The notes: generated by a model from the sequence alone, not told the origin. DNA of 64,000 bases from Candidatus Heimdallarchaeota archaeon (GCA_011364965.1 RDOB01000003.1:208930-272929), one strand, 5' to 3'. Numbered from the stretch's first letter, positions 28,145-41,632 are shown. Numbers and translations are program-made.

Positions 28145-28822
28145 TCAAGGTTCAATTATTAATTCTTCTAATTTTGTGATTACTTGTACATAAATCTCGT
28201 CGATATCAGGAAAATCAAATTTCGCGTTTTCTCTTTTAATTAGGATAAACGGAATATAACTCCGCAATGACGCGTATAAATCTGATGGAGAATCACCGAT
28301 ATAAATAACGTCGTCTTTAGATAAATTTAACTTCTTCAAAGTGATTTCCAACCCACTAGGGTGCGGTTTCGGCTCAATCATCTCTTCTAATCCAGTTAAA
28401 CATTCAAAATAGTCAGTCAAATTAAATGTTGCCAATATTTTTGAGGCTACATATGATTTGTTATTAGTTACGACAGCTAACCTAAATCCATATTTTTTTA
28501 ATAAGATCAGTACCCTATGAACGTTTGGGAAAAGGGATACATTTAAAGTAATTTTATCAACAAAATAATTATCTATTAGTTTTGTTAACCGATCTTTTTC
28601 CCTAGCATTGAATTCTAAGGAAGGGAATAAGCAAAGTAATTGACCTTCAGTTGAGAATGCAACGATTTTTTCAATAATAGATGGAGCGGGGATTTCATAT
28701 TTTTCCCTTCTAAGAATCTCTTGGAGTGCAATTATCCACCCTTTTGTACTATCTACGAAAACTCCATCCAAGTCGAAAATAATTGCTTTCAGTGATTTTC
28801 TATGCTGCAAAGGACCTTTCAT
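28145..28822 (-). CDS. HAD-superfamily phosphatase
   Basis: FDLDGVFVDS, VVTN, KPHP, YIGDSPSD. Confidence 0.92.
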   Translation of the reverse strand: MKGPLQHRKSLKAIIFDLDGVFVDSTKGWIIALQEILRREKYEIPAPSIIEKIVAFSTEGQLLCLFPSLEFNAREKDRLTKLIDNYFVDKITLNVSLFPNVHRVLILLKKYGFRLAVVTNNKSYVASKILATFNLTDYFECLTGLEEMIEPKPHPSGLEITLKKLNLSKDDVIYIGDSPSDLYASLRSYIPFILIKRENAKFDFPDIDEIYVQVITKLEELIIEP

Positions 28823-28853
28823 TGGAAATCAAGAATAGGAATGATAATAGGAA

Positions 28854-29672
28854 TTAACGAACTTGCTGTACTGCTTCCATGAATTCCCTAACACGTTTAA
28901 TATCGACGTTTTTCCAAGTATCACCATTGAATTTCAAGCTCGTACCGACAATAACTCCATCTGCTACCTCGAGCTGTTTTATAATATTATCTTTTCTCGC
29001 GCCTGTGTTCACAATTACTGCCGCGCCTAATGAATTTGCTTTTACGGTTTTTAGCTCATCAAGTTTAGCTTCCATGCCAGTCATGGGTCCTGAAACACAA
29101 AGTGCATCGGCAATACCAACAAATACCGCTCCTTTGGCAATCAATGCTAATGAGCGTTGATCCAAAGGATGAGCGAATTCTGCATTCACAATACCAAAGA
29201 TTTTGATATCATTTGCTCCGATAGCCTTCCTATATCGTAACGTTTCAGCACCTGGAGCGTTCAAGAACCCCATATCCCCTGCAAATGCCCCAGTAAATAC
29301 TCCCCTTACAAATTTTGCTCCAGTGGCTTTAGCTACTGCTAATGCTGAAATAGGATCCCACATTATGTCAATACCGTATGGGATTGATATTTCAGATTTT
29401 AATTCCCCAATTACTGCAGCCATGGATGCAACAACTACTTGGTTTACTCCAGTTGCATAAGGACGATCCCCTTCATTGCAGAAGAGAAGGCCGTCAATCC
29501 CTCCTTCTTGCAAAGCTAATAAGTCTTGTTTGGCACTGGAAAATATTTTTCCCATTCCTTCTTCTTCGTTGAACTCAGGTGTATAGGGAAGAGGAGGAAA
29601 ATGAACCATCCCAATCACAGGTTTTTTTACATTAAAAATTTCATCTAAACATGTCATTTCTAAACCCTTCAT
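28854..29672 (-). CDS. BtpA/SgcQ family TIM-barrel protein
   Basis: KPVIGMVHFPPLP, GGIDGLLFCNEGDRPY, ADALCVSGPMTG, DGVIVGTSLK. Confidence 0.92.
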   Translation of the reverse strand: MKGLEMTCLDEIFNVKKPVIGMVHFPPLPYTPEFNEEEGMGKIFSSAKQDLLALQEGGIDGLLFCNEGDRPYATGVNQVVVASMAAVIGELKSEISIPYGIDIMWDPISALAVAKATGAKFVRGVFTGAFAGDMGFLNAPGAETLRYRKAIGANDIKIFGIVNAEFAHPLDQRSLALIAKGAVFVGIADALCVSGPMTGMEAKLDELKTVKANSLGAAVIVNTGARKDNIIKQLEVADGVIVGTSLKFNGDTWKNVDIKRVREFMEAVQQVR

Positions 29673-29923
29673 ATCATAATACTATTTTCTATCTTAATTT
29701 AAATGATGTTAGATTTCTCATAACTTTAAAGAAAAAAAATAAAATATTCTCCAACAGAAATAACGCAAAGTTCCAAACATTTAGAACTCTCTGTTCTTTT
29801 TCAAAGGAGAGGTTTTTTATAGAATAAAAACTGCTATACTCATATAAATTCAGATCTGAAGTCTTTTAAGAAATCAAAAATCAAATTCATCACCTAGAAG
29901 TATGAAATACCCAGGGAATTATA

Positions 29924-30349
29924 ATGCAAGAAACTGAATTTAAAACTAAATATATATCTGTTAAAACTCTTAATGCAGGGGAATATTACGATGTAACTGA
30001 TGAACTTAGCACATTCGTAAAGGAAAGTGGCATACAGAAAGGTATACTTATAGCTTATAGTTTGCATACTACAACTGGATTGGTTGTAAATGAAGGTTCT
30101 GATCCTGGGGTAGGAAAAGATGTTTCTCAAGTTTTATGGGAACTTATACCTGAAACAAGACAATGGAATCACACAGAAGAAAGCCCTCTGGATTCAGCTG
30201 CGCATGTGAAAGCTCAAATGATAGGAAATTCAATAATTCTAGGAATTGATCAGTCAAGGTTAATACTTGGAACTTGGCAAAGAGTATATTTCATCGAATA
30301 TATTGAAGCCAGAGAGAGAAAAGTCTTTGTAATAATCTTTGGAAAATGA
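29924..30349 (+). CDS. yjbQ: YjbQ family protein
   Basis: HTTTGLVVNE, AAHVKA, LILGTWQRVYFIEY. Confidence 0.92.
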   Translation: MQETEFKTKYISVKTLNAGEYYDVTDELSTFVKESGIQKGILIAYSLHTTTGLVVNEGSDPGVGKDVSQVLWELIPETRQWNHTEESPLDSAAHVKAQMIGNSIILGIDQSRLILGTWQRVYFIEYIEARERKVFVIIFGK

Positions 30350-40412: not shown

Positions 40413-40467
40413 TTTTTCATCAAATCCTTAAAATTAAAAATTAAAACTCAAATAACATCAGTCAATA

Positions 40468-40495
40468 TTAGTAATTATCGTAACAAAATTACTAA
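40468..40495. promoter_or_regulatory. Candidate operator: 9-bp perfect inverted repeat with 10-bp spacer
   Basis: TTAGTAATT-N10-AATTACTAA upstream of the aminotransferase; its core CGTAACAAAA recurs at 36531-36540 upstream of EIIB. Confidence 0.45.
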
Positions 40496-40600
40496 ACTTT
40501 TTGTTTTTGAAGTGATATTATTGTTAATGAGAACCAAAATCAATCTCTGCTCTCATTTTTTCCAAATAAAGACAAATTTAAACTTCACCATCAAATGAAA

Positions 40601-41632
40601 CTAAGATAAATCATCTAGATAACTTTTGGAATTATATTCATCAAGTGCTTCGTATCCACGAGCAACTATTTCTGTTAAATAGCACACTTGGTCTGCCTGT
40701 TCTAGTAAGCTTGACAATAGCCTTGCTAGAAACCATGTAGGTTCATCAGAAGACTCTTCAGAAATAATAGCCAACATAGGTTGAACTTGGTATTTCTTAT
40801 TCTTCACTTCTTCGTGTGTGGAAAGAGCTTTAGAAATATCTTTGTTGAGGAAAGCTTTAATTGCATCATCAAGGAGTTCTATGAGTTTATCAGAAATTTC
40901 ACGAACCATCGATTCAGTTTCAGGGGTAAGAAATGAAGCTTGAAATTTCCCAATTCGCTCTGCTAGTTCACGACAGGAGCGACCAAGGACTTCACCTTGA
41001 TACACAACAATCTGGTAATTTAAACATTCGAAAGGATATAGGTTCAATTCCTCTAAGGGGTCTTCGAGTGATTGTTGTAACAGACGAACAGTAAAATAAT
41101 ATACACGGTCTACCTCAGAGTATCTTTTAATGATTCGGTCTTTAATTTCTTCATCTTGAGTAAAAATAGCTGATATAGCATCATCCAACATAGAAAATGA
41201 AAGAGCATAGATTTTTCTAAGAAGAGTTTGAAGATCTAAGACTGATGTAGCTATAAATTGAATTTCTAGTTGATTAGGGGCCTCACGTATTATTTCAAGA
41301 CCGATTTGATGCCGAATCTCTTCACGAATTTTATCTGGATCTAAAATTTTTTTCTTTCCTTCTGTAGGAACCACAATCATTGTATCAAAACCTGTAACAT
41401 AGCGTGCAAGAATCTCTAGCTCTATTTTTTCATTTTCAGAAATAGTTGTACTTTTTCTAGGTTGAATCCTAGGATTACGAGGATAGAGTAAAAGGTATGT
41501 TTCATTTTCAATTCGAATTCCAATTTCATCTTTAGCTTCCAAGCCATTCCGCTCAATCCATTCACGAGGAAGACTTACAAGATATGTACGAGCTCCAGTG
41601 AGCTGTAAACTACGGGTGATATCTTTTGGCAT
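40601..41632 (-). CDS. AbrB-PhoU-PhoU archaeal transcriptional regulator
   Basis: RSLQLTGARTYLVSLPREW AbrB-like N-terminus; YVTGFD; PhoU-like helical repeats (EVDRVYY). Confidence 0.85.
   Translation of the reverse strand: MPKDITRSLQLTGARTYLVSLPREWIERNGLEAKDEIGIRIENETYLLLYPRNPRIQPRKSTTISENEKIELEILARYVTGFDTMIVVPTEGKKKILDPDKIREEIRHQIGLEIIREAPNQLEIQFIATSVLDLQTLLRKIYALSFSMLDDAISAIFTQDEEIKDRIIKRYSEVDRVYYFTVRLLQQSLEDPLEELNLYPFECLNYQIVVYQGEVLGRSCRELAERIGKFQASFLTPETESMVREISDKLIELLDDAIKAFLNKDISKALSTHEEVKNKKYQVQPMLAIISEESSDEPTWFLARLLSSLLEQADQVCYLTEIVARGYEALDEYNSKSYLDDLS

Follow-up and report, generated by a model that had tools for sequence, protein, structure and literature searches.

A galactitol-family phosphotransferase gene block with an unprecedented enzyme set in Asgard archaea, and its possible role in amino- or deoxy-polyol catabolism

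The described systems that come closest to the gene cluster analysed here are bacterial operons built on a galactitol (Gat)-family phosphotransferase system (PTS). The gat operon of Escherichia coli combines such a PTS with a Zn-dehydrogenase (GatD type) and with aldolase cleavage to triose phosphates, and the arabitol system of Bacillus methanolicus, Listeria and Enterococcus (AtlABC plus the arabitol-phosphate dehydrogenase AtlD; PMC6685057) likewise has Gat-family EIIA, EIIB and EIIC followed by a Zn-dependent medium-chain dehydrogenase. For Asgard archaea, a 2021 transporter survey reported zero PTS proteins (PMC7997004), and our search of the open literature recovered no later description of an Asgard PTS; literature searches on SgcQ, 8GYH, and Hodarchaeales together with phosphotransferase returned nothing on a system like this one. 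Here we describe a probable Gat-type PTS catabolic operon from Candidatus Heimdallarchaeota archaeon, found in a stretch of 64,000 nucleotides (GCA_011364965.1 RDOB01000003.1:208930-272929; hereafter the window). Its ten genes encode a DegT aminotransferase, DeoC (deoxyribose-phosphate aldolase, DERA), EIIC, EIIB, a class II aldolase, a Zn-dehydrogenase, a clade-restricted orphan membrane protein, Enzyme I (EI), HPr and EIIA, an enzyme set that fits no characterised pathway. The block is a real unit, yet a smaller one than a first-pass annotation of the same DNA had claimed.

Comparison with the known systems shows where this locus departs from each of them. Unlike gat, it has neither GatY/GatZ (the class II fructose-bisphosphate aldolase-type tagatose-bisphosphate aldolase) nor a second kinase, and its aldolase is of the FucA/AraD fold; no F_bP_aldolase-type gene is present among the cluster open reading frames (ORFs), and the dehydrogenase misses the GatD equivalog threshold (a score of 147 against a cut-off of 550). 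A layout like AtlABCD occurs in Thermohydrogenium (L151), with an EIIC ~42% identical to the Asgard EIIC, but the arabitol operons continue with transketolase, transaldolase, ribulose-phosphate 3-epimerase (RPE) and RpiB, whereas the Asgard cluster adds a FucA-type aldolase, DegT, DERA, the orphan and its own EI and HPr, and resides in an archaeal host. The E. coli sgc operon (sgcRAQCBXE) and a Bathyarchaeota contig (L008) resemble the window in having a Gat-family PTS near BtpA/SgcQ, and YjbQ lies beside BtpA in both the window and L008; SgcE (an RPE) and SgcX (an M42 peptidase), however, are absent from the Asgard cluster and both present in L008. Lastly, the FucA/RhaD pathways for L-fucose, L-rhamnose and D-arabinose, in which a ketose 1-phosphate yields dihydroxyacetone phosphate (DHAP) and an aldehyde, share the aldolase fold, zinc ligands and Glu, but the Asgard cluster has no isomerase and no FGGY kinase, and its PTS would supply the phosphate.

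ORF listing and Pfam and NCBIfam scans of positions 28145-41632 recovered every gene that the first-pass annotation had named, and the family matches bore out its identities and positions. Its inventory needs amendment in two places: the last ORF (40601-41632) encodes a PhoU and AbrB/MazE-type regulator and no enzyme, and a 356-aa ORF without family match, at 33076-34146 on the minus strand, had been omitted. The ten genes of the block are the following, counted from the first letter of the window.

39174-40412, minus strand: DegT/DnrJ/EryC1-family pyridoxal phosphate (PLP) aminotransferase of a clade-specific subfamily (PF01041, 275 bits)
38491-39159, minus strand: DeoC/DERA, a second, cluster-specific paralogue (TIGR00126, 241 bits, cut-off 117)
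36632-38209, minus strand: PTS EIIC, galactitol (Gat) family (PF03611, 205 bits)
36084-36410, minus strand: PTS EIIB, Lac/Cel/Gat type (PF02302)
35270-35896, minus strand: class II (zinc, DHAP-type) aldolase-family enzyme, FucA-like (PF00596, 162 bits)
34197-35273, minus strand: Zn-dependent medium-chain dehydrogenase of polyol/threonine-dehydrogenase type (PF08240 and PF00107)
33076-34146, minus strand: orphan membrane protein, 356 aa (no Pfam or NCBIfam match)
31315-33063, plus strand: PTS Enzyme I (PF05524, PF00391 and PF02896)
31046-31318, plus strand: HPr (PF00381)
30565-31011, plus strand: PTS EIIA, type 2 (EIIA_2; PF00359)

A tblastn search with the window proteins showed that the gene order recurs in at least eight related contigs at 47-85% protein identity, an arrangement that, judged from the sequences, is not due to chance. 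Full loci run from PhoU-AbrB through DegT, DeoC, EIIC, EIIB, aldolase and Zn-dehydrogenase to the orphan, continue with EI-HPr-EIIA-YjbQ on the opposite strand and end with BtpA; partial contigs are consistent with this order. When 24 genomes of the order are compared, exactly the seven that bear the EIIC have a DegT orthologue (at least 69% identity), and the remaining genomes hold only paralogues of at most 37% identity. The cluster-type DeoC (62-74%) is present in the same seven genomes and in 0 of the 17 others, and two of its carriers (G013 and G014) retain it unlinked, elsewhere in the genome; around the unlinked copy of G013 the surroundings are uninformative (PPDK, GSDH, a permease). 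The conserved co-occurrence with this EIIC clade that the earlier annotation had proposed therefore holds for DegT and DeoC but not for BtpA, which is also found in PTS-less genomes. Most genomes of the order also carry another DeoC paralogue at ~40-47% identity. In this genus the frames that contain it are long, measuring ~480-490 aa in several genomes and, in a single genome, 1261 aa (for example G008:C1:1387602-1388240 and G010:C1:3991662-3992297), which suggests DERA fused to another domain.

The PTS-less relatives reveal the extent of the block. PhoU-AbrB, YjbQ and BtpA are adjacent in one of them (G007), with the block precisely absent between PhoU-AbrB and YjbQ-BtpA; in a second (G004) PhoU-AbrB adjoins BtpA, and in a third (G006) BtpA is the sole remnant. 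In phylogenies of PhoU-AbrB and BtpA these genomes nest with PTS-bearing G005 and with a genome whose island is truncated (G002), with support of 100 and 97. Because the PTS-less relatives keep the flanks and nest among PTS-bearing ones, the stretch from DegT to EIIA was deleted, to varying extents, and not inserted. In the truncated genome (L020:12411-20000) the island stops after EIIB, and no aldolase, dehydrogenase, EI/HPr or BtpA follows within the next 7.5 kb.

Such truncation, together with deletions of different extent in G004, G006 and G007 and a patchy presence in 7 of 24 genomes, is what would be expected if the island were in decay and no longer functional in this genome. We regard this as very improbable, given that the ten genes are all intact and retain their catalytic motifs, that identity across genomes is 47-85% at the protein level, and that matching contigs occur in RNA libraries. 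These metatranscriptome contigs, from two runs of one study, are 99-100% identical to parts of EIIC (36601-38228) and EI (32271-32481); DNA carry-over is possible, and so is expression of the cluster. Cover in the RNA libraries is limited to these two genes, and its absence at the others is no evidence against their expression.

A shared upstream element further ties the genes together. Comparison of upstream regions yielded three features.

40471-40505, minus strand: predicted promoter/operator 5' of DegT, a footprint kept in eight loci
36532-36540, minus strand: predicted half-site TTTTGTTAC 5' of EIIB (upstream-region comparison)
35968-35990, minus strand: composite promoter element 5' of the aldolase-dehydrogenase-orphan unit, TTCTGTTAC...ATTAC (cross-locus alignment)

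When upstream regions are aligned across loci, a conserved composite, TTyTGTTr-N4-5-TAATTAC, stands 5' of both DegT (40471-40488) and the aldolase (35968-35990), and the 18-nt element is found at both positions in four loci, namely the window, L021, L022 and L002. The window holds three matches to the composite against 0.77 expected, but the motif was derived from these same upstream regions, which makes the count post hoc and the cross-locus conservation the stronger argument. On the DegT side a palindrome, AACAnAA-N11-TTnTGTT, overlaps the composite, and its arms covary between loci in the eight-locus footprint; 5' of EIIB, the word TTTTGTT(A/G)C aligns with copies in L005, L002 and L024. 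The DegT-side element persists beside PhoU-AbrB in PTS-less G007 (L112), and BtpA, YjbQ and PhoU-AbrB have no such promoter element. DegT and the aldolase-dehydrogenase unit thus appear to be co-regulated. The proposal that DegT and DeoC belong with the PTS is upheld by these lines together: orthologues restricted to the seven EIIC-bearing genomes, a position inside the co-deleted block, and, for DegT, a promoter element in common with the aldolase and dehydrogenase.

By gene content, the PTS phosphorelay is predicted to be complete and intact. HPr carries GLHARPA (His15), EIIA carries AIPHAE (His) and EIIB carries VACGT (Cys), which we take to be the phosphorelay motifs of these three proteins. 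At the position of the regulatory Ser46 of Gram-positive HPr, this HPr has a Lys (DAKKILGV), so that HPr kinase-type control is not expected in this archaeal PTS. EIIC scores 205 bits against PF03611 (cut-off 24) and 314 bits against TIGR00827, below the cut-off of 542, and is on these matches a Gat-family member and not a galactitol equivalog. Its identity is 62-84% within the Asgard clade, 50% to a Bathyarchaeota relative and ~42% or less to bacterial proteins. Bacterial EIIC relatives of ~40% identity have a Zn-dehydrogenase after them, joined once by transketolase, transaldolase, RPE and RpiB; this order, and its match to the AtlABCD arabitol system (PMC6685057), supports the view that the Zn-dehydrogenase acts on the PTS product. 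The Bathyarchaeota relative is encoded on an ENA metagenome contig (L008:1-16552) whose proteins are identical to those of a Candidatus Bathyarchaeota metagenome-assembled genome (MAG), and which carries two Gat-type PTS clusters side by side. Cluster one comprises RPE, a 2-hydroxyacid dehydrogenase, EIIA, EIIC, EIIB, a class II aldolase-family gene and a Zn-dehydrogenase; cluster two, which is sgc-like, comprises EIIA, EIIC, EIIB, RPE, an M42 peptidase, BtpA, an amidohydrolase and YjbQ. A PTS is itself unusual in Bathyarchaeia.

The enzymes encoded next to the transporter have recognisable active sites. The class II aldolase ORF was called at 35270-36001, but its start is probably at 35896, because database orthologues have 208 aa. 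Its PSSE (Ser-Ser-Glu), HAH and HG motifs, which include the three His zinc ligands, align to solved FucA chains (6btd and 4c25), and it has Glu at the position of FucA Glu73, where an AraD-like relative has Asp. The C-terminal tail is shortened relative to FucA, and there is a clade-specific insertion. The nearest relatives outside the clade are at 33-38% identity, none of them close; two of these (34-36%) lie beside a pair of a lactaldehyde-reductase-like Fe-dependent alcohol dehydrogenase and DeoR and beside a bacterial microcompartment (BMC) shell gene, respectively, settings that we assume to be typical of fuculose- or rhamnulose-phosphate aldolases. The Zn-dehydrogenase has the motifs of the catalytic Cys/His-Glu, a four-Cys structural zinc site and an NAD-type GxGxxG..D, and its relatives in the PDB are threonine (TDH), sorbitol, xylitol and galactitol-1-phosphate dehydrogenases; we presume it to be a sugar-alcohol-phosphate dehydrogenase.

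DegT and DeoC are equally well preserved at their presumed catalytic residues. DeoC contains EIDMV, FVKTSTGY and VKAAGGIR, presumably the DERA active-site motifs (Lys, Asp). In DegT the presumed Schiff-base Lys197 is invariant in 22 aligned relatives, in an S-x4-K ... GEGG context of which GEGG is also invariant, and by this PLP-binding Lys the protein is predicted to be of the aminotransferase and not the dehydratase type. It falls below every NCBIfam equivalog cut-off (LegC family 232 against 420, PseC 203 against 423), and none of the named nucleoside diphosphate (NDP)-sugar models (LegC, PseC, ArnB, WecE, DesI) reaches its cut-off. The earlier annotation had allowed that DegT might prove to be an NDP-sugar biosynthetic enzyme, and the gene context gives no sign of this: no NDP-sugar dehydratase, nucleotidyltransferase or glycosyltransferase gene is present in the Pfam-scanned span of the window (~15.4-57.5 kb). 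The clade forms a long isolated branch of 0.75 changes per site that arises from a polytomy without resolution, and as the tree gives no resolved sister group, no donor can be named. Its closest non-Asgard relatives, from Chloroflexia/Anaerolineae (38-41%), stand head-to-head with a GntR/UTRA-regulated sugar island. In a Chloroflexia MAG (L048:700-15100) and in L006 this island comprises an ABC sugar transporter, two PIG-L de-N-acetylases, a xylose-isomerase-like barrel, a short-chain dehydrogenase/reductase and the divergent DegT; further genes encode a class II aldolase-family protein of the AraD, Asp (epimerase) type, a glyoxalase-fold protein, a HAD protein, a Zn-dependent alcohol dehydrogenase and an aldo-keto reductase. 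The L006 version is common, its DegT being listed in 74 blocks of the contig collection. The island looks like amino-sugar catabolism, and we consider it a partial, independent parallel and a candidate for an uncharacterised N-acetyl-amino-sugar pathway.

From the gene set, the active-site motifs, the co-inheritance, the shared promoter element and the loss of the block as a unit, we infer a set of reactions, their order and a substrate. Phosphate would pass from phosphoenolpyruvate through EI, HPr and EIIA to EIIB, and EIIC would import the substrate, to be released phosphorylated on a primary hydroxyl. The Zn-dehydrogenase would then oxidise or adjust the carbon beside the phosphorylated one to give a ketose 1-phosphate, which the FucA-type zinc aldolase would cleave to DHAP and a short aldehyde. 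As far as sequence can indicate, these three steps, phosphorylation by the PTS, the Zn-dehydrogenase and FucA-type cleavage, would be the best-supported chemistry. DegT could exchange an amino for a keto group, which the dehydrogenase could reduce to the hydroxyl needed for aldol cleavage, and DERA could handle a 2-deoxy-aldose phosphate or acetaldehyde. We tentatively favour, at a little under even confidence, a catabolic island in which the PTS product becomes a ketose 1-phosphate and then DHAP and an aldehyde, and to which DegT and DERA, regulated together with the rest, would be added to suit a substrate with amino and/or deoxy groups. The amino/deoxy-polyol catabolism with two aldolases put forward in the first-pass annotation accordingly stands as regards the co-inherited DegT, DeoC and PTS, and its substrate may be an amino, a deoxy or a plain polyol. 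In a speculative scheme, DegT would turn a ring or chain amine into a ketone and the dehydrogenase would turn this into a hydroxyl, and a 6-deoxy end would leave as lactaldehyde. A fuller version is possible but rather doubtful: a catabolic DegT would act on a PTS-delivered, non-nucleotide amino-sugar or amino-polyol phosphate and convert amino to keto and, with the Zn-dehydrogenase, to hydroxyl, followed by FucA-type release of DHAP and a deoxy branch through DERA, in what would be a new way of breaking down amino/deoxy sugars or sugar alcohols and the first functional PTS pathway described from Asgard archaea, with the orphan as a possible sensor.

Several points weigh against the pathway that we favour. 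DERA has no clear place in the scheme that runs from DegT through the dehydrogenase to lactaldehyde, which is a weakness, and the single phosphate that the PTS provides would not readily suffice for both aldolases on one molecule. Two genomes (G013 and G014) lack DeoC in the cluster, and ~290 bp separate DeoC from EIIC, a gap that makes separate transcripts possible. The nearest EIIC relative, that of the Bathyarchaeota MAG, belongs to an EIIC-EIIB-aldolase-Zn-dehydrogenase core without DegT or DeoC. The unlinked DeoC, the gap and the Bathyarchaeota core, together with the bacterial pairing of EIIC with Zn-dehydrogenase, speak for the main rival, a system for a plain polyol, either a pentitol (for instance D-arabitol) or a 6-deoxy-hexitol (for instance L-fucitol). 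Its route would lead from the PTS over a polyol-phosphate dehydrogenase to the FucA-type aldolase, and DegT-DeoC would be a neighbouring operon with an unrelated job that travels with the island. So does the search of neighbourhoods elsewhere, which met no PTS, DeoC or BtpA gene within 10 kb of any of the 80 nearest DegT relatives from species-representative genomes. The DegT-PTS link is so far confined to one related genome group, whose members, being kin, are no independent evidence. Against a neighbouring operon stand DegT and DeoC orthologues strictly limited to PTS-bearing genomes, the retention of DeoC there even when unlinked, the conserved element common to the DegT and aldolase promoters, and the inclusion of both genes in a block deleted as a whole. 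We therefore judge the plain-polyol explanation unlikely, though it is the competitor to be taken most seriously.

The relatives of DegT also count against a catabolic role. All solved homologues with strong scores are biosynthetic, the best being GDP-perosamine synthase (199 bits), and archaeal relatives of 37-39% identity occur in housekeeping contexts. Homologues acting on non-nucleotide substrates, NtdA and the inosose aminotransferases, score more weakly (97-144 bits). NtdA (kanosamine) and BtrR/StsC (aminocyclitol) belong to the same Pfam family and are precedents for action on sugar phosphates and inososes rather than NDP-sugars, but they are biosynthetic, and their partners NtdC (GFO/IDH/MocA type) and 2-deoxy-scyllo-inosose synthase are absent from the Asgard cluster. 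The island could on these grounds encode salvage or biosynthesis, with a sugar phosphate oxidised by the Zn-dehydrogenase and aminated by DegT to an amino sugar or amino-polyol, as in NtdC/NtdA/NtdB for kanosamine or in the aminotransferase-phosphatase-dehydrogenase sets for iminosugars; solved DegT-family enzymes, including the non-nucleotide NtdA, scyllo-inosose aminotransferases and AHBA synthase, are biosynthetic, and this genome has a HAD phosphatase added at the locus. The HAD gene is not conserved, though, the block includes two aldolases, the Pfam scans found no glycosyltransferase, nucleotidyltransferase or cyclase, and the island is dispensable and often deleted, all of which leaves biosynthesis improbable. 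We rejected an aminocyclitol reading for want of an inosose synthase: the analogy that had been drawn with 2-deoxystreptamine/aminocyclitol enzymes fails at its defining member, 2-deoxy-scyllo-inosose synthase, of which no (DHQ-synthase-like) domain occurs in the ORFs Pfam-scanned at ~15.4-57.5 kb.

The aldolase-family protein itself gives a third ground for caution, as it stays below all NCBIfam cut-offs (FucA, RhaD, AraD, OtnC, MtnB) and scores highest with the model of a decarboxylase, OtnC (115 bits, cut-off 250). A ribulose-5-phosphate 4-epimerase subfamily comes next with 106 bits, and the FucA models reach 69-97 bits against cut-offs of 250-400. With scores under the curated cut-offs and OtnC at the top, 'releases DHAP' is a safer wording than 'is FucA'. 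The protein could be an OtnC-like decarboxylase (acting on 3-oxo-tetronate 4-phosphate) or an epimerase. The PTS would then bring in an acid sugar or a pentitol and no aldol cleavage would take place, and the Bathyarchaeota locus, with its RPEs and 2-hydroxyacid dehydrogenase, is in keeping with this. All of these scores lie far under their cut-offs, however, the protein has Glu where FucA has Glu73 and epimerases have Asp, FucA enzymes are its best solved matches, and the Asgard block contains no epimerase or pentose-phosphate enzyme; we assign the decarboxylase or epimerase only a small chance.

The orphan membrane protein is kept in every full cluster at 47-62% identity and has few relatives: a search of 1.84 billion representative proteins gave only four matches at E<=1e-10, of which two are fragments. 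Pfam yielded nothing usable for it even at E<=10. An AlphaFold 2 (AF2) model with a predicted local distance difference test (pLDDT) score of 74 shows a helical domain at the N-terminus, two transmembrane helices and, at the C-terminus, an alpha/beta domain. The only Foldseek matches of the C-terminal domain, which were to PLD-like folds and the sugar-sensing regulator TrmB, are weak (E 0.05-0.2), a VIA-align comparison with 48,161 PDB representatives gave helical-hairpin matches to the transmembrane part only, and an ESM Atlas feature search with the C-terminal domain gave no match at or above 0.9. The modelled architecture suggests that the orphan may be a membrane-tethered sensor or regulator, which we offer as a lead and not as a finding.

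Four further genes border the block.

40601-41632, minus strand: PhoU and AbrB/MazE-type regulator (Pfam PF01895 and PF04014)
29924-30349, plus strand: YjbQ/UPF0047 (PF01894/TIGR00149)
28854-29672, minus strand: BtpA/SgcQ-family protein (PF03437, 249 bits)
28145-28822, minus strand: HAD-IA phosphatase (PF13419)

PhoU-AbrB is 80-85% identical and lies beside DegT in all related loci, and it lies beside YjbQ/BtpA in PTS-less G007 and G004. BtpA has orthologues in three PTS-less genomes, and BtpA-family genes occur in 40 of 151 sampled Asgard genomes, compared with 9 of 400 for Gat EIIC. With BtpA so much commoner than the PTS, the locus alone cannot assign functions to BtpA or YjbQ. The suggestion that it would do so finds no support, since both genes lie beyond the indel block and are retained where the PTS is missing; on present evidence their function is not solved here. 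BtpA exceeds the cut-offs of both PF03437 and TIGR00259 (256 bits), has no match among PDB sequences, and is modelled by AF2 (pLDDT 92.5) as a (beta/alpha)8 barrel whose best matches are phosphate-binding barrels at a template-modelling (TM) score of ~0.6, generic matches only. It is, on this model, a phosphate-binding TIM barrel without a specific solved relative. BtpA shares 46-47% identity with the Bathyarchaeota BtpA that is linked to a PTS and 29-38% with the BtpAs of other Asgard genomes, and YjbQ also adjoins BtpA in the Bathyarchaeota sgc-like cluster, which itself adjoins the closest outside relative of the EIIC (50%). A historical link of BtpA and YjbQ with Gat-type PTS clusters is therefore plausible, and BtpA, YjbQ and PhoU-AbrB are old neighbours, possibly what is left of a larger sgc-like island.

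The HAD phosphatase had also been counted as a pathway enzyme, and we rejected it as a member: it has no counterpart in any related locus, occurs in this genome alone and is probably incidental. It occupies the place where relatives have, after BtpA, a full aldehyde:ferredoxin oxidoreductase (AFOR) gene of 586 aa. Nearby, at 27528-27905 on the minus strand, a 125-aa remnant matches positions 262-348 of the AFOR C-terminal domain only and is probably a truncated AFOR pseudogene left by rearrangement.

The flanks of the cluster are archaeal and Asgard-like, with HdrA/MvhD-like proteins, Lrp regulators, an ADP-forming acyl-CoA synthetase and a Ras-family GTPase. The small GTPase (56927-57463, plus strand; PF00071, 143 bits) fits an Asgard host. 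At 20243-25910 on the minus strand are HdrA-like flavoproteins (684 and 451 aa), an MvhD/FlpD-like protein and a membrane Fe-S protein, and no HdrB/C is present in the window. Orthologues of 62-84% identity are labelled Hodarchaeales, Heimdallarchaeota and once Thorarchaeota, and the PTS-bearing group is probably Hodarchaeales. The seven genomes of the order with a Gat-type EIIC all belong to one GTDB genus; across the phylum, the two remaining genomes among the nine EIIC-positive ones have unrelated EIICs of 35-41% identity. Seven studies have metagenomes that contain near-identical DNA, sampled from marine sediment, estuary, mangrove and 'soil', and a metagenome scan with an EIIC alignment returned five loci, of which three are of the same Asgard clade, one is of the Bathyarchaeota type and one is a relative of 29% identity.

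That several Hodarchaeales-like genomes encode a full phosphorelay, EI and HPr included, is unexpected for Asgard archaea, and the 50% identity of the EIIC to that of a Bathyarchaeota MAG documents a bacterial-type uptake system exchanged among sediment archaea. Small, self-contained and furnished with a recognisable predicted operator, the ten-gene block is a practical target for heterologous reconstruction. If its DegT is indeed catabolic and acts on a sugar phosphate, a very large family regarded as 'biosynthetic' would gain a new role.

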